A stretch of 61,702 bases of DNA, filler included, from Sphacelaria rigidula (lineage: Eukaryota): the NCBI GenBank assembly GCA_964200075.2. It is 10 parts of 10 records of this genome, joined end to end, with 100 filler letters (N's around TTAATTAATTAA, not from the genome) between each part and the next. Parts side by side here need not be neighbours in the genome. Positions count along the whole stretch, not along the records: positions 37,083 to 43,162 come from CAXNAA020022374.1; 9 more parts are not named here. One strand, 5' to 3'. How positions within the stretch are numbered: the stretch's first letter is position 1; each line of letters starts with the position of its first letter. The notes beneath the pieces are model-generated. The model saw only the letters and a list, made by a program, of their open reading frames with translations. It had not been told where the DNA came from and made no database searches. The translations under genes were made by a program, and so were the position numbers. Shown here in pieces: positions 5,901 to 49,342 of this stretch.

Positions 5901-6081
5901 ACGTGCGTTGCTATATCCGACACTTTCTACGATAGCCCCCCCCCCGAAAAAGTGCATGGTTTTGGAAGGCAAACTCTTCCCGTAAATCGAAATGGGAAAA
6001 TTAGAGCACAACGAGAAGCTGGGAATTCCCACGCTTGGGTTCGTTCTAGCCAGTGTCGCTAGTATGAGGCGCTTCATGCAG

Positions 6082-6181
6082 NNNNNNNNNNNNNNNNNNN
6101 NNNNNNNNNNNNNNNNNNNNNNNNNTTAATTAATTAANNNNNNNNNNNNNNNNNNNNNNNNNNNNNNNNNNNNNNNNNNNN
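6082..6181. other. Artificial contig-joining spacer (first of nine)
   Basis: 44 N + TTAATTAATTAA (stops in all six frames) + 44 N. Identical spacers at 12263-12362, 18443-18542, 24623-24722, 30803-30902, 36983-37082, 43163-43262, 49343-49442 and 55523-55622. Intervening segments are 6081, 6081 and then 6080 bp each, i.e. length-sorted contigs. Confidence 0.98.
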
Positions 6182-6328: not shown

Positions 6329-8679
6329 GGGGGGGGGGGGCGGGGCGTACTCATTCGTTGCTTGCCTTAGTCGTTCGACCATTGACCACGCATCCCTTTC
6401 GAGACGCAGCATCGTTTCCACTCCTAATAAAGGCACTCAAACATTCGGGCGAATATTGCGTTTCTACACCGCAAACCTTGTGCATATCTTAACCCCTCCC
6501 TGATTCGCCGTCTGTGGCCACTATCTGTCCCCTAGTATGCGATGGTTTTCTCTCTTCAGTCAAATGTATCAAACGACTCCAAACCACCTTCGCTTACTTC
6601 CCGCATTTGCCCGTGCAACACATCCCGCTCCTGCCTGTGTAGCTCACATTCTGCAACTCTATGGGTTCTACTCTCTATTGCTCTGCCACAGGGGCAATTC
6701 TGTACATTTACTTCCTCCTTCACTTGACCATTGGTATATATATTTCTTCTTTCCGGCAGGTCCAGGTCCCTCACCCGAAATCGCAGTTCCAATTTTTTCG
6801 CCGAGTGCATGGGGTCATGCAGATATGTTTTCATCCCTTTTCTCTTCTGACCCCCCCCGTATATCTTGCAGAGCAATGCTACGATAGGGGTTGCCCTTTT
6901 TGTTTCTGGGTCTCGTTTTTATGGGAGCCCAAATATATGGGGCTTACTGTGCAACCCAAATCTCCGGAGACAGGACATGGAGATTCAAACAGGGGCCTTT
7001 TAGTGAACTGGCATCATTTTCAGTCTATTTTTAGTGAAAAATGATGCCGATTCTCAAAATGATACGTCCAACACCCCGAGAAACATTTTCGCTCAAAAAG
7101 TGCAACCTCTACCGTAGCATCACTCTGCAGGTGCTCTTCTTTGTCGGTTTCCGTCTTGGTCATTATTTTCCCCTTATTTGTATCATGTCTTGCTTTTGTT
7201 TTGCACCCCCCGCATTCACGTATGGACAGTATCTCGTCTTGGTCTCCTCCTACCTCCTTCCATACTTTCTCGACTTCTCTATCCTACCTTATTTCACCCT
7301 GCTTTTTCGTCACTTTCTTCCATACAGCCCCATCAACTATGGCTGGCAATCTCTTTCTTTTCGTCTTCTTCAAGCCATATTGCCGTTGGAGTTTTGTCAT
7401 GGCTCTGTTTGTTTCAAGTGGGTACATTCCCAACCCTGATCTCAATGCTGTAGTACTCGTCGTTTTGGAACATCCAAGTATTTTCGTAGCTGCTGTCATC
7501 TGTACTGTTTCCAACATCTTGACCAATTCCCCGTTCCCTTCCCATACTTCTGCATATTCCAGCTTTGGTACGATCACGTTCATCCGGATGCATCTCTTAA
7601 TCCTAGTATCTAGGTGCGAGTCTCTGAGGATCATGTCCATCTTTCCTATCTGTGCCTTACCCCTTCATGTTACTTCATTCATGTATGCACCGCAAGAACA
7701 GTTTTTTATATATTTACGCCAAATCATGCGTACTGGTCTACAATCGGCAGTTCCTCTTCTCCTCACTTGTATTTGAACTCTTAAGGGTTCTTCTTATCTT
7801 CGTTGCATTCAAGTACCGCGCATATGTAAATGTTCGCTGTCATTTTCCATTTAGTTGTGAATTCTAGCGCCTTCTCTATTTGGTTCTGCAATCCTTCTGG
7901 TGTTTCTGATATCCGCACGAAATCATCCGCGAACACCAATCCTGATACCTCATCTACCCCCACCTTGACTCCTTGATTTGCTGCTTCTATTGCCATTGTC
8001 AGGTCAAAATAAATAATTTGAATAAAGTGGGTGACAACGTAACGTATATCCTTGTGCAACCCCTTGTAAGACATCACAATATTTCGATATTTCCCCACCT
8101 ACACCACAGCACTTTTGCGCATTCTGTCCTCTTCTCCATCTCTCTCCACATTTTCCCTCTGGTGCCAGTTTCCCATATCTTTTTCCACAGCCCATTTCTG
8201 CATACTGCCATAGGCCTTCTGCACGTCTAGAAAGAAACAGTACGTTGTTAGCCGGGCGTCATTTCTGCCTTGAATAATCTAACCTAATGTGTACACATAG
8301 TGTGCGCGACTACTTTTCGGTCTAGAACCTGCTTGGCCTTCGCTGATTTTTTCTTCCTTCTCTAGCATCGTCCCCAATCTAAGAATGTTCAGAATCTTCT
8401 AGAATGTCTCCCCTACGGTGCTAGGTAGCGTTGTTCCCCTACAATTCCCTGGGTCAGCCTTGTGTCGTCTTTCGAAAAGGTTCACTACCCCTTCTCTCCA
8501 CTCCTTGAGTGGGTACTCGTTATCCCATATCCAATTATACAGGATAGCCACCATGGTGATCATCTCCGCCCTCCTGTACTTTAGAAATCAGTTCAATATT
8601 GTCTGCCCCTGCTGCGTTTCTGTTCTTGAGTTTCGCTACGCACTCCTTTACTTCCTCTCTTGTAAAGTCTCTGCAATCT

Positions 8680-23620: not shown

Positions 23621-24550
23621 TTTTCGCTTCTTTCAGCTCTCGCCGTGCGCACTATCCATGGTGATCGACGGTTAACAGCGTGCGTATCGATGTTGCAGGT
23701 TTTCAGGGGTGGTGCTTTCTGATTCGGAGGAGCTGAAGCTTGTGGCGGTGGCGGCTGCGCTGCGATGGGGTAGGGAGTACATGGACGCCTCCATTGGAAC
23801 GAAAACTGACAAGTGAGAGTTGCACACATACTTTTTCACTTTGCAACGAAAATTCGAACAAATATCTTTCACTTTTGTAATGCTCGCTCTCCGTCACGAT
23901 GTTGTAGTACGTGAGACAAGGAAACAATCTCTAATGCGTGAATCACTATTGATTGAACCTTTGGGAACGCATTGACGATTCTTGTTTTTGTGAATCGGCA
24001 TCATTTTGACTTGAAAATGACTGAAAATGATGCCGATTCGCGAAAACAAGAATTGTCAATCGGTTCCAATAGGGTTGAACTCGACGTACATTGATCACGT
24101 TGGTTCTCGCTTGGTTATTGGATGTTTTGATGTTTATTCATCTGTTTGTTTTGGGGGGAAAATGTACAGCACAAGACACGGCGGTGCAGTGTGCAGTGAT
24201 GCGCATCCATTTTTTTCATTTTCCCGGGGCGTGGGGGAGTGAACGAAGAGAGTCTGACGCACGGTCGATAGTCGTGCTAACAGCCTCCATGTGCGTGTGG
24301 CACACATCCTGGACAATGACAATTAGATTACATCATCAAAAGGTGTGCTGCGTACAGTATCGACTACAGCATCTATTGCGACACAGTCGATATATTCTAT
24401 ACTGTACGCAGTAAAGTATTTTGCAATGTAATCTTTTGTCCAGGGTGTGGTGTGGCAATGTGTGTGTGTGTGTACGCGCGCGCGCGTCACGTTGTTGAGC
24501 GCCTCCTCGTTCTCAGGATCAATTCGTAATTGTAAGGGAAAAATCGACCC

Positions 24551-36055: not shown

Positions 36056-36982
36056 TCAGAGCTTAATCCCATACTTAGCTAGCAAACGCGTCCGTACATG
36101 CTTTGATACTTGCAACTTACGCAATGCAAAACATACACACTGCGGGGCTCCTTCCAAAATGGTTTCCAGTGGCTCTCACGAGATCTCGTCCTGGCCGAAA
36201 CCTACCCATTCCACGTGTACAACGAACCCATCACCGTTTTGAGCCTCGGACAAGTCAACGATCGCCTCCATCTCGAACTCCCCTAGAGTAAACGCATACT
36301 GGTACACTTCCTTGAGATCCGCAGTGACCGCCAGCTCCTTGCCCGCATTGTATCGTAGACGGAAGACAAGCGCGTCCCTCACCTCGCCATTCATGATACT
36401 CTGAATCTCGTACACATGTTGATGCTCCGCCGCCATGATCCTCCACGGTCCTGTTCACAGACTTACGAGTTTTGGCGTTGTTTCTGAGCGCCTAACCCTT
36501 GCAACCAACACATAGTCACCCACCATGAAATTTGGCAACTCTCCCTTACTAGCTACACGTCGTTACAGTTCACGAGTCTTCTCAACACGCTACGCCACCT
36601 TCTTGTGCACCGCTTGCTGCGCCTCCACGAACCGATGCTACCTTCTCCCGCAGCATGTCCTCATCCAGCACATCAAGTCGCCACTCACCGCCGGTCGACG
36701 ATGCCAGGGTTGAAAAACTTGTGCGCGGCGCCCGTCCAAACATCACATGGTATGGCGTACTGGCGTAGCGCTCGCGGGACGCCGTGTTCAATACCCACTG
36801 TACGGCAGACATCAGTCCCACCCAGCCACGAACGTCGCGCCTCTCTTCTTGCAGCATGGCCTTCAAAGTACGGACAGTCTCTCGCATCATCCTTTCACAC
36901 GTACCACTTGACCATGGCAAGTTTGGAACCGCGAAGCTCGGGTCCAGCTTCAGCGCCTTTTCCAGTGCTCGCATCACATGGT
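36056..36982 (-). mobile_element. Ty3/gypsy chromovirus-like pol 3' end (integrase plus chromodomain), degenerate
   Basis: PWSSGTCERMMRETVRTLK...WVLNTASRERYASTPYHVMFGRAPRT (integrase core), GDYVLV and TGPWRI (GPY/F-like), EFEMEAIVD...FVVHVEWVGFGQDEIS*EPL (chromodomain); frameshifts present. Confidence 0.9.
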
Positions 36983-37082: not shown

Positions 37083-38130
37083 GGGGCGTACTCATTCGTT
37101 GCTTGCCTTAGTCGTTTGACCATTGACCACGCATCCCTTTCGAGACGGAGCAACCCCATTGGGGGGGGGGGGCATGATTTTGCATGCCGTAGTCAAATGA
37201 CCATTGACCTTGCACCCTTACAAAGCCTGGACGGAGTACGCGGAGTTTTTGCCGGACCAGACTCGCAATTAATCACCAAGCGCGAAGTGTCGTGATGTTT
37301 CTGGCGAGTCGCATTAAGGATGAGCTGCATCATTCTAAGATTGTGTGGCCCGAAGCTTATTAAGCATCTTGCATATGGGCGACAGCCTCACATGAGTTGC
37401 TTCATTTTCTGGTATCGCCACATGCAGAGACAGCCATGGGATCCACAGTGCCTCATGGGTGTGTCGCCATTACACACTACGTGGTATGATCATCCCCTGT
37501 GCGCATGATTGAGGTTCTCCCATCCCGCACAACATGACGTAGCTCGACCACCATCATGGCTACCGCAAAAAAACAACGCAAATGAGCAAAACAAACGGTG
37601 AGCTGGTTGTCTAGCTTACGCAGTGAGTGGTGTGTTTTACAGTGTCTTCGCCAATCGACGCCAACCCCATAGGGGGTCCATCCCCACGAAGCCGGGACGG
37701 AGCACGCCGGGTTTTCGCCAGACCAGCTAACCCTATTGGGGTGGTGCGCACTCATTTGCTGCTCGCCTTAGTCGTTTGACCATTGACCACACATCCCTTT
37801 CAAAACGGAGCACCATTCCTACTCCCAGTAGAGACACCTCCAACATTTCGGTGCTCATTACGTTTATTTCACACATTACACGAAAACCTTTTACATATCG
37901 TATCCCCTTCCTAATTCACCGTCTGTGGCCCCCATCTATCTGCTAGCATAGCGATTGTTCTCTCGCTACTGTCTAATGTACCAAACGATTTCATGCCGCC
38001 TTGGTGCGGGGGGGAGGGGAATGGTGTTGGCACGGGAGAGGCGAGCGATGGGGGGTGGGGCGTGCTCATTTGTTGCGCGCCTTAGTCGTTTCACTATCGA
38101 CCACGCATCCCTTTCGAGACGGAGCGGGCG
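37083..38130 (-). mobile_element. Cluster of five co-oriented LINE and partner-element 3' ends separated by G/C-rich runs
   Basis: LINE tail 37083-37153; full partner element 37173-37668; partner fragment about 37680-37725; LINE 3' fragment about 37737-38000; LINE tail about 38050-38126. Confidence 0.85.
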
Positions 38131-38849
38131 GTTGGGGGAGGCGGCTGGAAAGCTCCGGCTGTAGCGGGCTCCACGGTAGCACTGACGTCGTCTGTGGCGT
38201 CGTCTGCAACAGAAAACGAAACCCCCCGCTCGGGACGCCTTGGCAGGTAATATTTTTGCATGGAATGTTCAGTTTATTTTGGCAAGCGCCGAGCTTCGTC
38301 AAGTCCGGGCTTTCTGAATTAGTTTCCCGGCTGCACGTTTGAATCTCGATTCTCCTCTCGATATATTGTCTTTATTTTAGTGTTGTGTGAACAGTCCCGC
38401 GAATAGCACTATTATACATCCGTCAACGCTGTGTTATCCTCATCGTTTCGCAAATGGGATTTCCGAGAAAAATTGCGTCGAGCCGCTGTACCTGTGACGA
38501 TCGTCGCTGGCGAGTCTACAGATTATTGCGCCGCACAAATCAGGTACGAGAGTATTCCCATCATGAACCCTTGGCGTTGACGTACCGTGAGGCATTCGAA
38601 CCGCTGTCTGCCGAGTGAAGCTACTGTAATACGCAGATGACGAGTAACGACATCGCTTACAACATGTTGAATGCTCCCCTTCGGTGATGTCGATCGCACG
38701 TGGGAACCTCGACTAAAGGTTACAATACAACACCCCGCACCCCCCGCCCCTTCATACTGAATTATGCGGGGAGCTCTCACGCCCGTTACCGTCGCGGAAT
38801 GGTTCACCCGAACGCCAGCGCCCGATCTCAGCAAGTTGCCCTACGGCCG

Positions 38850-39830
38850 ACAGTACATACTTATTGTCCCGAACTTGGCAACTCATGCGGACCTTCTCAC
38901 GCAAGATGAAAATATCGGTATCCGGTTGTAAGCGAGCGTGTTGGCGGACCTTTCAAACGCCGTGGTCAACACGGGCTCACTCACCATTTCTCTCGTAAAT
39001 ACCTGCAGATGGTGACGCATTTTATTTTCCAGCTGTATTTTTGTCCAGAGGCCGTTGTCGAAACCTCGGAGCCGTTTTTTCGGGAAAGTGGGCTAGATCC
39101 CTCCCGGTGGGTCGAAACAAATTGTCCAAGACGTGTGATGGCGATGTTCTCTGTTCTGCGGCCAAGAACCGTGTCAAATGTCTCAAGATTGGAAAAAACG
39201 AGCCCAAAAAATACGAACCGTAGGAAGCGGCCTGAGTATCAGTATAAGGGGGCCACAGGGAATTCGATGTCGTGTGGAGACACCCAGGGATTCTTGCGTT
39301 TTGAGCCTTCTGCACCCCTCCACGCGTGACCACATTTTGCAGTCTGCAGACACACGGGTGCTGAGGGCCCACTGTTCTAGCCACAGCAGGATGCTGATCA
39401 CCTTGCTGCACTGGTGCTTGGAAACGGCGTGTACACTGCGTGCGTATCCGATCCGGTGATGATATATTGCAAGCAGGCATGCAGGGTGCCGGCGCCGCTT
39501 GTGGTGCCGCTTGCAACCGTGGATTGTTCGTTCGGACAGACGATATTTCTTTCGTCGTTGAACCTGACGTTCTGCCCGTCGGCGTTCCGCAAACCAACGT
39601 GTCCGCTATCACGAACGCTGGCCTCGCGGCGCTGGTGAAGAACACCAACAGTGAAGGTAGTAGCCATCAACGAACGATCAGTAGTGACCACGTTGGCTAC
39701 GCAGTTCCATTTGGAGATCCAGTTCCATCTGTTGATGAAGGTACACATGTTATCAACTGTTGCGAATGTCGATGCTACCTTTCGGTGATTGTAGCCTCCT
39801 TTTGTCCAAAGTCTCGTTCGCAAGTACATT
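38850..39830 (-). pseudogene. Decayed coding sequence, possibly a Plavaka-like DNA transposase
   Basis: Frameshifted protein-like pieces (VASTFATVDNMCTFINRWNW; QHPCVCRLQNVVTRGG; PTFPKKRLRGFDNGLWTKIQLENKMRHHLQVF) only loosely resemble Plavaka motifs. Needs an HMM search. Confidence 0.25.
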
Positions 39831-44257: not shown

Positions 44258-46032
44258 GTGAAGTACGAAGACGTTCAGCACCTAATGTTCGCCAAGACGA
44301 CCAAGTTGGTGAACGCCGTCCCTCATCGCTGGATATCTGTATGCCAAGTACTACAATAGAGGAGGTTCTCCGCAACTGGGCGGCACTTGAAGAGCGCTTC
44401 CAGAAAAACGAGCGCGGCGCCACTTTTCTCTCTGGCGGCACACAAAACGGAGATAGAGGAGCTGTACAGCTTGATGAAACCGATGTCTGTGTTGATGAAG
44501 ACGAGCCAACAGACGGGAGTGCCGACAGGCCTTGACACTTTCCTCGCCCTCGTCATGCTCCGCTGTTCCACGCTGGACGTCAAGAAGCCGCTCGCCATCA
44601 CGGTATCCCGCAAGACTCTAGAAGGGGACGCCGGCACCACAGAAACGACAACCGTCAACCGCCCGCCCGAAAACCTGACGTCGGTGATCACCAAAACTTA
44701 TAAGATGCTGCTGGACGCAGTGAACAAAGTGCTTCTTTGATAAGCGATACAACGGAGCGGTGGTTGGAAACCCACCGCCGGGCTAAGTCTTCGAAATGGC
44801 GGCATGCATGAGCCCTTGCTTGATGTGGCTTCCGGCGGTGTGTAACAACGAGGGAGAAGCGCAGCGCGTCAGCAAGGTAATCAAGGACAAGGTGGTGGAC
44901 CTCCTGGTGAGCATGGCTGAGGAAGTAGGTGACGGGCAGGAAAAGGAACCTCAGGACAACGGCAGCAACGGCGATAACGGTGATAACGGCGGCAAGTCTA
45001 CCGCACCGGGCGAGAAGCGGAAGCACGGACTTTTCTCCACCGTGACCCCACCCAGCAAGAAAACGAGTGAGGCGAAGAAGAGATAACTCGCCAGCGGTGT
45101 ATTCGGCGATTGCTCGAGCAACACCAAAAATACGGGGCCGGTCGTCCTGACCACGCGGCAGATTTGCCAGCAGGAGTTCGATCACTTCCAAATGCGATTC
45201 GACGGTGCGTACGTAGACAACTACCCGGTGGCGCACCTACTCGACTTCTGGGCGGGCGAGGGGGGGTCGCTTTACCCGAATATGGCTCGCACTGCTCGAG
45301 TCCTGACGTCTATGCCGGCATCGTCTGCCGTTCTCGAAAGGGACCTCAGCACCGCTGGGCGTCGTATCACCGGGTCCCGAGGCAGGCTTGATTTGGCATA
45401 TGCGGAGATGGTGTTGTTCTTCCGTGGGAACCACGCGTACATCCGCGTGGAAGTTCCCGCTCTATCGACGGAGCAAGCGCTGCAAGCGGTACCAAGGCGG
45501 CTCTCTGATCCTAGGGCGGAGATCGGAGGTCTTTCTTCGGCGAATACGGAGCGGGATGATGACTTCGACGAGAACGCAGTCGAGATGTCCAACTACGTTG
45601 GGACGGGATGGTGATGAAGGATGTGCAATTTTTCCCAGCAAGGGTATTTTTCATAACCTTGATTGGTTGTCCAATATGCCTTTCTTCTCTGTTGGCGATA
45701 CTTGCCTTTATTCTTGTACCTTCTGTTGAGTTGAGGCTCTTGCCTGCATGGTTTTCAAGGGTCGAGTGAGTTAATTCGTCTGGAAATTGCTTGATTTTAG
45801 TGTAGTCAATTTGTACCGTACGAAGCAACCCTTACGCTTTGTTTTCAGTGTTGCAACCCAGGTACGCGCACCCTAGGCACGTGGAAATACGCAAACGTTG
45901 CGTGGATACCCCTCGGACCAGCGGTCAACTGTTTTCTCCCTTTTGGGAAATCAGGCCTGAAAAATCGTGAATTTGGTAATTCCAACCGGTCATGATTCGT
46001 CCGAATCGTGATGGCTGCACAACACACCCAAC
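44258..46032 (+). mobile_element. hAT (Ac-like) DNA transposon: decayed transposase C-terminal half and 3' terminal region
   Basis: KLVNAVPHRW..STTIEEVLRNW (TRWNS-equivalent) and LLDFWAGEGGSLYPNMARTARVLTSMPASSAVLERDLSTAGRRITGSRGRL (hAT dimerisation domain, ends 45614); frameshifts and stops. 45755-46030 is homologous to 56895-57190 in reverse orientation. Confidence 0.88.
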
Positions 46033-46409
46033 ATTTGATTGCTTATCCCTTTGACCGCGAGGGCAGGAGGTTTCTGAATCGGCATCATTCACACCCGAGA
46101 AATGTAGTGAATTACAGTAGGCGCCCGCACTCAAGAACCGCTTATTTTGCGTGAGGCTCAAGGCTTATGTATTGCCTCAACCCGAGCACCTGTTCTTATT
46201 TGCCTAGTTCTTACTTTGGCCAGGCACTACTCGTCCCTGAAAACGCGGGTTCTTGTTCTTATTTCAACACCCAGTGCTCCAGGGGGGTATGGCAACGTCC
46301 GTTCGTGGTGAACTACAGGACTCTGAGTACTTGACATGAGTATTAAATTCGCACCCTCCGCTTGTCGATTGGAAAACGCTTGTCAGCACAACAGACACTC
46401 GAACGCGTC

Positions 46410-47237
46410 GCAGCATCACGATCACTGGAAAGTACAAGTATATCACAACAAACGTTCGCAGAAGAGTTGGCACGGAAACTCAATGTTGAGGTAGGTAACA
46501 GTATTCCGATGAAGCCCGGTGTGAAGCTTGAAGAGTTCAGAGAACACGAAGAGCCAACGGAACTACCTTTCAGAGAACTGGTGGGATCACTCATGTGGCT
46601 GGCCACTCGAACACGGCCAGACATATCTAATGCAGTACGAGCAGTAGCAAGGTATTGTGCGTGTCCCAGAATCCTACATTGGCGTGCAGCGATTGGTATT
46701 TTGGGATATGTGAAACGGACCAGTACACTTGGGATTACCTACCGTGGAGGAAGTTTGCAGGGAATGAGCCTTCAGGCGTTTGCTGATGCTGATTACGCCA
46801 GCATAGCAGCGGACAGGCGTTCGGTGTCTGGGGGGCTAATCATGTGTGGTGGCGGATGTGTTTCTTGGTTATTCAGAACATAAAAATGCGTAACGCTATC
46901 TACATCGGAGGCAGAATACGTAGCCGTGACTGACGTGTTGAAGGAGGTAATGTTTCTCAGACAGGTATGGCAATTTATGTTGCCTCAGGTTGGAGTACCA
47001 TGTATTCCGTTGTTCGAGGATAATCAGGGAGCCGTTCAACTAGCACAGAATCCCATGACCATCTCGAACTCCAAGCATATCGACGTTAGATATCATCTCA
47101 TCAGGGAAGTAGTATCGAGGAAGGAGATTTCGATTATCCACGTAAGATCGGAATATCAACATGCTGATTTCTTGACAAAGGTGTTGCCCACAGAGGTCTT
47201 TGAATTTCATCGTAATTATGTCATGAGTATTATGTGA
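46410..47237 (+). mobile_element. Ty1/copia pol 3' end (RT C-terminus plus RNase H) with a premature stop
   Basis: PFRELVGSLMWLATRTRPDISNAV, AFADADYA..DRRSVSG, FRT*KCVTLSTSEAEYVA (TAA at 46881-46883), FEDNQGA, SKHIDVRYH, QHADFLTK. Confidence 0.95.
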
Positions 47238-48037: not shown

Positions 48038-48245
48038 GAGCGGTCGATTACGCTAGCGTTAAGAGTCACCGCCGGTGCAGAAGGGTTTGAGATTGGAGAG
48101 AGTTTGAGCAAAAGGAGAGTTTGAGTCGAAGTGGGAGAGTTTGAGCAAGAGAAGGGTTTTAGTCGAGGAATATTTGAGAGAGGTGTGAAGTTTGACAGGT
48201 TTGATTACAGATTGAGCGAGGCTGATAATTTGACTAGGTTTTAAA

Positions 48246-49342
48246 ATGGAAGAGAGTCAACACCCCACGATGGAAGAACAAGTAAGATTTTTGACTGAAC
48301 AGTTGAGTGGGATGCAACAGAGCATGAACAACACAGCGGTGATGCATGCTAATACAGCACAGCAAGCACCGTTCCCCACTCCCCACGCCCCCAATTCTCA
48401 TCGCATTCGCAGCAACAAAAGCATCCTACCTTGGGATGAAAAAGCTGCCACATCTACCAATGTCAGGGATAGATTCGAGGTATTCAACATCCAGATGTGT
48501 GCCTATTTCAAGGATGAGAACTGCTATGACGCTTTGCTAGTTGAGAACCCCATCAGGGTTCACCATGAAAACGAGGACGATTTACGATCAACTTTTGGAA
48601 ACGAAGCAGTCGATAAGGCCAAGAGGGCTACGAGGATAATACTCGATAAAGTGACCTCTCCTCCCTTGGTGAGACATATCGATATGCTTGCGAGTCCAAG
48701 TCAAGCTTGGAATTATATCGTTCAGTACTACAGGATTCCAGAAGCCACGGAGAAAGCCAAGCTGGAACACGACTGGCAAACGTTGCAGATGGCCGACGGT
48801 GAATTGCCAATGAACTTTCTTTCGCGGGCCCAGTTTATTCGTACGAAGCGTGAAGAATTCGATGTAGTTCTCTCAGACTGTGAAGCGAACAGGCATATTG
48901 TAAGATGCCTTTCATCAGAATACGAGCACGAACGTAGGAACCTACTAGCATTACGGGAGATAAGCATAGATGAGGTAGCCCGCCAGCTAGGAAATGCGTA
49001 TGCAGAATCGCAGTTGTTGAAAGAAAGGCAGAACACAACCTTGAACCATGCACTTTCCGCCTCTAGTACTGGTGGAAGGGGCCATGGATCACCCGGCAGA
49101 AGGCAGAACGGGGGAAACCGCAGATCCCACAATCCGCAAAACCAACCCAACCACCACATCCCTTCCAACCCACATCGACCCAATTTCCATACCAACCATG
49201 GCTCACAGCAATACATCAGCAGTGGTCATGGTGGTCGAGGGGGATGGCATTCCCCGAGACAACAGCCATGGCGACCAAACAGTCCATGGAGTCACTCGGG
49301 ACCAGGCCGCGGTAGGGTTCACCAACCAAACCAAAGAACCTA
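48246..49342 (+). CDS. Ty1/copia Gag (UBN2/Retrotran_gag_2-like), open to the contig end
   Basis: Uninterrupted ORF of more than 360 aa with SPSQAWNYIVQYY..EKAKLEHDWQTLQMADGELPMNFLSRA and IVRCLSSEYE, followed by a G/R/N/H-rich region. Confidence 0.85.

Follow-up and report, generated by a model that had tools for sequence, protein, structure and literature searches.

Our analysis of a 61,702-nt stretch of Sphacelaria rigidula DNA (the window) and of further loci from the same genome makes it very likely that an RTE-X-type LINE and two passengers sharing its 3′ ~70 nt, a ~560-nt element (B) and a ~70-nt tail-only form, insert at genomic C-tracts by target-primed reverse transcription (TPRT), building head-to-tail arrays. 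We directly observed the C-tails, the C-runs at 5′ junctions, the target-site duplications (TSDs), the empty sites, the co-orientation of neighbouring copies and the coding of an endonuclease and a reverse transcriptase (EN-RT). The gain lies in the mechanism and the numbers, and the array described below is one of many. A LINE that ends in C and integrates at C-tracts offers a natural test of tail/target matching in TPRT, free of poly(A).

Layout of the array

The array (37083-38138) starts at base 1 of contig CAXNAA020022374.1, the seventh of ten in the window, and its left end is cut off. The source assembly is a 244-Mb draft of 27,214 contigs, ten of which, size-sorted and ~6.08 kb long, are strung together in the window: a 100-nt N-linker-N spacer at 6082-6181 and eight further ones recur every ~6180 nt, with unrelated contigs on either side of each. 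Several of these contigs have long G/C runs or family copies at or near their start or end.

Four elements make up the array, all on the minus strand: three LINE 3′ ends (A1, A2 and A3) and one passenger (B). Read in element sense, A3 (38125-38050) comes first, followed by a C-rich stretch of 42 nt, A2 (38008-37738), a spacer, B (37728-37161), a second spacer and A1 (37153-37083), where the contig ends. The parts are as follows.

37083..37153, minus strand: A1, a ~70-nt LINE 3′ end copy with the last 19 codons, the stop, 5 nt and a C-tail cut at the contig edge (37083)
37152..37164, minus strand: 3′ spacer copy, CCCCAATGGGGTT, behind the C12 tail of B (37161-37172); 12/13 identical to 37729-37741, with which it brackets B
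37161..37728, minus strand: B, a 556-nt non-coding passenger plus C12 tail
37729..37741, minus strand: 5′ spacer copy, CCCCAATAGGGTT; TSD of B, beginning within the A2 tail
37738..38008, minus strand: A2, a ~260-nt, 5′-truncated LINE with a decayed C-tail (37738-37749)
38008..38049, minus strand: C-rich unique spacer between the A3 tail and the A2 5′ end; a C7 adjoins A2
38050..38125, minus strand: A3, a second ~70-nt LINE-end copy with an interrupted C-tail (38050-38060)
38126..38138, minus strand: A3 5′ flank, C5 plus 8 nt; 9/12 letters recur behind the tail (by eye)

The three LINE 3′ fragments named in the original prediction match the end of P0001, a 1360-aa protein that is the closest full ORF: A2 matches its last 80 residues (aa 1281-1360; 70%, E 2e-29), and A1 and A3 each match its last 19 (aa 1342-1360; 89% and 74%, respectively). 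The same prediction had counted five elements. The pile-up is real and lies entirely on the minus strand, but it holds four, and we rejected the five-element reading: the two supposed partner pieces are a single B. Of 697 candidates, 40 were scored, and in 38 of the 39 listed places other than this one the stretch 37660-37726 continues without interruption; the C5/G5 at 37672-76 is therefore family sequence and not a junction. The seven G-rich patches that had been read as separators are all present, but this one is internal to B.

Identity to the best relative among the sequences analysed is 100% for A1 (at least five other copies are identical), 92% for A3, 83% for A2 and 80.5% for full-length B; these values are rough age proxies only, because the families differ in spread. 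Judged in this way, the members appear to differ in age: A1 would be the youngest part, A3 older than A1, and A2 an old copy. No clear TSD was recognised at the flanks of A2, and the 5′ flank of A3 is probably a decayed TSD, below exact-TSD scoring.

To the left, the 13-nt spacer string is a variant of a motif internal to B (29 exact matches that include the next four B letters, 20 of them read), and at another locus, L142, insertions are stacked ahead of a truncated B that breaks off at the same spacer-like motif. These two observations incline us, mildly, to the view that the array probably runs on beyond the contig end into another B. The pattern of LINE end, C-run and spacer has no match in the assembly, which is itself incomplete.

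The LINE and its two passengers

P0001 contains endonuclease domains (PF03372 and PF14529) and a reverse transcriptase domain (PF00078), and in a PDB search it matches L1 ORF2p and R2. Across the RT region a genome copy is 70% identical to P0001, and the domain is recognised on copy L060 (PF00078, E 4e-21). Another copy, L058, follows P0001 collinearly from aa 162 to aa 1360, with 71% identity across aa 191-339; its decayed endonuclease piece alone gave no Pfam or PDB match. The family thus has the features of an APE-type LINE, with an RT domain and an N-terminal apurinic endonuclease in the same ORF, 5′ truncation, a simple 3′ tail and variable TSDs. The ORF stop lies 5 nt ahead of the C-tail, and all four metagenome relatives that reach the ORF end (five loci fetched) likewise show a stop, 5 nt and a C-run. 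The named relatives of its RT are Ectocarpus proteins, with up to 59% identity. The LINE fits the RTE-X type, a clade assignment that rests on its match to a published description.

Several further observations concern the LINE. Over the final ~70 nt of the ORF, the DNA of window 37087-37152 and that of four marine metagenome copies (L154-L157) scarcely differ, and this near-identity covers third codon positions, as expected for an RNA signal laid over coding sequence. Many RT relatives (among P0009-P0036) show 42-49% identity and come from contigs of great length, the longest reaching 3.3 Mb. We also saw inverted, twin-priming-like LINE segments within or beside copies (L074:1442-2207, L097:1799-2051 and window 6743-6990). 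One LINE copy is interrupted by a palindromic element of ~60 nt, which is present again at window 23986-24046. No RNA run was found among the public-run matches listed.

The closest published elements are those of Ectocarpus sp. 7. In the accessible text of the source, RTEX-1_Ec32 has a single EN-RT ORF and a "(C)n 3′" end, RTEX-2_Ec32 has "(C)n termini/TSD" with a "C-rich" TSD, and both occur in thousands of copies (PMC12477816). RTEX-N1_Ec32, a non-autonomous element of 607 bp with more than 6000 copies (2.48 Mb), is described there as having an unknown 5′ head, a 60-bp 3′ end 83% like the LINE and a C-rich TSD, and it "can be present in tandem" (PMC12477816). To judge from its size, it is probably the earlier Sower element, which makes up ~2.5 Mb (PMC3145265, accessible part), and RTEX-1 has also been reported in Saccharina (PMC4421812, accessible part). 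Compared by description only, the S. rigidula LINE shares with RTEX-1_Ec32 and RTEX-2_Ec32 the single EN-RT ORF, the (C)n 3′ end and the C-rich TSD; it comes from another genome, and the accessible text on the Ectocarpus elements gives no nick site, empty sites, nesting or orientation (PMC12477816). The (C)n end, the C-rich TSD and the tandem partners are therefore already annotated for Ectocarpus RTE-X, as far as that text goes, and the trait itself is not new. We found no printed account of the junction mechanics or of the young ~70-nt tail-only form, and a text search (most subscription journals and Repbase Reports lie outside its coverage) returned no report of a poly-C-tailed or C-tract-targeting LINE.

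B fits RTEX-N1_Ec32, again by description only: it is ~600 bp long and non-coding, shares the LINE 3′ ~60 bp, has a C-rich TSD and forms tandem copies (B-B tandems occur in L123 and elsewhere). Over its final ~70 nt it is similar to the LINE 3′ end (72-75% across 60 nt against L154/L155). B differs in its length of 556 nt and in a 5′ repeat: its first ~50 nt (37679-37728) duplicate part of its 3′ region (37215-37263), a feature absent from the RTEX-N1 row of the accessible table (PMC12477816). In L114, L137 and L151 this 5′ repeat reaches further upstream, into another body unit, and a tandem unit of ~465 nt may have given rise to B. Copies of B start preferentially near -560, -500 (at an internal C5) and -90. 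A garbled inverted copy of the B 3′ end lies at window 50272-50366 beside an internal N10 gap and is probably low-quality sequence. We considered a ribozyme or other structured-RNA head (retrozyme- or HDV-like) at the terminal repeat and rejected it for Rfam-listed classes: Rfam gave no match in the window at the gathering threshold, nor in 37083-38200 at E<=5, and the repeat folds like its shuffles (z -0.88). The same Rfam scans gave no match to a tRNA, 5S or 7SL head, the mark of a SINE in the strict sense, for either B or the 70-nt form.

Stringent SINE/LINE pairs share their 3′ ends, and the RTE and green-algal RTEX tails given in the accessible part of the source include (TTG)n, (CA)n, (CAA)n and (CCAT)n (PMC3747384). 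The LINE and its passengers share a 3′ end in the same manner, here with a single C as the repeat unit. A conserved 3′ stem-loop was not recovered: two hairpins with unlike loops can be seen by eye, but RNAalifold found no consensus pair in 36 decayed 3′ ends (36 of 37 listed, one with an internal insertion being left out), and we rejected a stem-loop common to A and B.

The shortest member of the family, to which A1 and A3 belong, is defined by its 5′ end. Eleven of 34 unselected LINE-end copies begin in a single 7-nt bin (p~6e-12 against uniform starts), and A1 starts at this fixed position. A T immediately precedes the start in 25 of 27 young copies, a position at which the four LINE relatives carry G. 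Where the TSD is clean, the target usually contains this T as well, which points to a one-base microhomology joint. We suggest tentatively, with slightly more doubt than belief, that the ~70-nt form did not arise by chance truncation but is a tail-only retroposon in its own right, with a 5′ end of its own, and ranks among the youngest passengers carried by a G-run-priming LINE; a fixed processing or stalling site may instead set its start. If the suggestion is true, the form would mirror L1/Alu on a minimal scale, being driven by poly(C) and lacking both an A-tail and a recognisable SINE head. The six RTE-X rows of the accessible Ectocarpus table span 188-5867 bp, and none is as short as ~70 nt (PMC12477816).

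C-tracts at insertion sites

Our unselected sample totalled 661 kb: the ten contigs of the window and 60 stretches, each of 10 kb, that were taken at fixed contig numbers from contigs >10.7 kb, which biases the sample to long contigs. It contains 89 family pieces (4.6% of bases), 58 of them with intact 3′ ends, and four copies are the array's own. A run of C>=4 stands behind 51 of 57 3′ ends and an A-run >=5 behind one. Within 25 nt ahead of the 5′ junction, where a tail is not expected, C>=5 is present in 32 of 51 copies and a G-run in none, against 2.3% of random windows, and a column table of the flanks gave no consensus beyond the C-run. The enrichment that the original prediction proposed to test genome-wide is thus borne out in this sample, and each of the three isolated copies that it cited (3-98, 2221-2300 and 50419-50942) indeed carries a C/G run where its 5′ end joins the flank.

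TSDs are clearest among young copies. From 29 loci we assembled 25 LINE-end copies that are at least 90% identical and have both flanks; 14 of these carry an exact duplication with at least four non-C letters, made of the C-run and unique bases, compared with 1.06 (maximum 3) after permutation. One of the 14 (L013) is spurious, a match to a tandem neighbour. Among the older, unselected copies exact TSDs are rare (2/51, against 0.8 permuted), and with a mismatch-tolerant score the copy's own flank was best in 11/51 (p=5e-4). For full-length B alone the statistic is weak (exact TSDs in 4/20 against 1.64 permuted), and the mismatch-tolerant test was not significant (own flank best in 7/20, p=0.11). 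Duplication of the tract, as first proposed, therefore holds for the young copies, but exact TSDs are scarce in old ones and B does not reach significance. Both runs are readable in 12 of 24 copies, and the non-C TSD part there measures 3-11 nt. In these 12 the 3′ C-run is longer than the 5′ run in seven and shorter in four, and the two lengths are uncorrelated (rho -0.15), which argues that the RNA carries its own C's and that the nick can fall within the run.

We searched for empty sites with both flanks of 87 copies against all DNA gathered for the analysis and, after dropping self-matches and family tail-to-tail matches, retained five filled sites. All five have empty counterparts, paralogous and not orthologous, that hold a C-rich tract: L027 (C12 in L055), L024 (C5), L020 and L008 (both C-rich) and L018. 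The last has four empties of C-run-TAT form (C9-TAT when empty); in the filled site C-run-TAT flanks the copy at either end. These data support the view, also part of the original prediction, that the C-tract pre-exists insertion and is duplicated as part of the TSD. Another short repeat family, in which a C-tract lies beside TACGATAG or TATCGTAGGATG, has repeatedly received insertions of the 70-nt form (L018, L015, L019, L027, L032 and L155); it supplies empty sites in L016, L043, L055, L079, L145 and window 5928-5945.

TPRT chemistry suggests how such sites would be used. The nick would fall inside the G-run of the G-rich strand, and the freed GGG-3′OH would anneal to the (C)n of the RNA and prime the cDNA. 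The other strand would be cut ~3-11 nt past the tract, usually after T; with this second cut beyond the tract, the TSD would consist of (C)n plus a few unique bases. The C-tail is most simply taken as copied from the C-run of the source locus, because poly(A) polymerase cannot make a C-tail. Each insertion would yield two same-strand C-tracts, the tail and the 5′ TSD copy, so later copies hitting either must be co-oriented, giving head-to-tail arrays. Locally, A2 was probably the oldest element; B would have entered the A2 tail, duplicating CCCCAATRGGGTT, A3 would have entered the C-rich patch 5′ of A2, and A1 would have come last.

L1 and Alu target A-rich sites and insert into older A-tails. 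The likeness is that a homopolymer tail would pair with a nicked complementary run, that the TSD starts with the homopolymer and that older copies provide targets. The system described here differs in using C/G instead of A/T, in a tail that does not come from poly(A) polymerase and in a passenger that shares specific LINE 3′ sequence.

In a variant of this mechanism with the same outcome, to which we give a little less than an even chance, the endonuclease has no sequence specificity and C-tracts are chosen at priming only, as a G-ending nick alone pairs with (C)n. The limitation of the flanking consensus to the C-run, the interrupted C-rich patches among the targets (L020 and L008) and the fact that nesting tracks plain tract abundance (see below) all agree with it, although the APE endonucleases of other LINEs have a sequence bias of their own (TTTT/A for L1). 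The endonuclease and RT of this LINE could reveal whether the cut or the priming picks the site.

Orientation, nesting and the origin of arrays

In the unselected sample all seven pairs less than 61 nt apart are co-oriented (4/4 without the array's contig), and 14 of 20 pairs farther apart share a strand (p=0.12). Across 894 kb of genome loci, chosen partly by family similarity, we found 46 same-strand neighbours within 45 nt; among close pairs with both 3′ ends intact, 29 are same-strand (manual count) and none opposite-strand, in line with the co-orientation originally predicted for adjacent copies. Strand-biased C-tracts were considered as the cause and rejected, since local C and G runs are balanced (195 vs 197).

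Arrays of three or four members also occur in L021, L122, L057, L112, L119, L121, L127 and L123. The spacer is found again behind the inner copy in L029, L016, L057, L032 and L007, the pattern expected of separate insertions. The original prediction had each new tail seeding the next insertion in the same orientation. The orientation holds, but in L069 and L002 the TSD of the upstream copy takes in the start of the downstream copy, so there the upstream copy landed in the 5′ C-tract of the older one and not in its tail. Nested copies number 6 of 49, while family-made tracts account for 88 of 1280 C>=5 tracts (6.9%; p=0.12). A specific preference for tails was rejected: measured against tails only (3.6%), 6/49 gives p=0.008, but 4/45 without the array's contig gives p=0.08. 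The family does create targets for itself, but these are few among the tracts available, and nesting is modest; to call it a self-propagating system was right in that family-made tracts serve as targets, but too strong given that nesting matches tract availability.

Template jumping has been attributed to R2, and arrays could mostly arise in this way from one event, with the RT moving from the 5′ end of one RNA onto the C-tailed 3′ terminus of another and leaving a head-to-tail concatemer within one TSD. We consider this improbable. Several junctions consist of C only (L030, L122, L127, L123 and L073) and are indistinguishable from template jumps; in L073 an A+B pair lies within a single TSD, and copies of the 70-nt form abut tail to head, without intervening letters, in 44, 23, 29 and 7 contigs of four public runs. 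On the other hand, a spacer lies on both sides of B, the array members appear to differ in age by the identities given above, and the repeated spacers in the five loci named require separate insertions. Jumping also leaves the C-runs at isolated copies and the empty sites unexplained.

Still less probable is that the array was wrongly joined in short-read assembly across homopolymers and repeats. The assembly is fragmented, the array sits at a contig edge, and its inner junctions are unbridged (31 nt each side) among the 32 pieces listed of ~163,500 public contig pieces. Against this, the locus-specific 13-nt spacer flanking B would not survive a chance join at C12, the longest homopolymer run is 12 nt, and the three- and four-member arrays listed above are of like build. 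In public unitigs the unique flank 38102-39045 is one piece in three of four runs, and there are exact pieces inside B and A2. At ~4.6% of the sampled DNA, a family that keeps duplicating C/G homopolymers may partly explain why brown-algal short-read assemblies are broken.

Random insertion, with clusters and C-runs left by retention bias or strand-biased C-rich DNA, is largely refuted and the least credible reading: separate copies 0.5-2 kb apart (L049, L038, L033 and L070) do lean to the same strand (9/11, p=0.065), but local C/G-run bias does not explain this, and the C-run TSDs and the empty sites count against it. The lean of these distant pairs possibly reflects intron orientation.

Other parts of the window, unrelated to the array, hold by eye a decayed Gypsy-like integrase/chromodomain piece at 36180-36982 (minus strand), and Copia-like RT and gag pieces together with a hAT dimerisation-like piece at 46347-46883, 48234-49342 and 45087-45614 (all plus strand).
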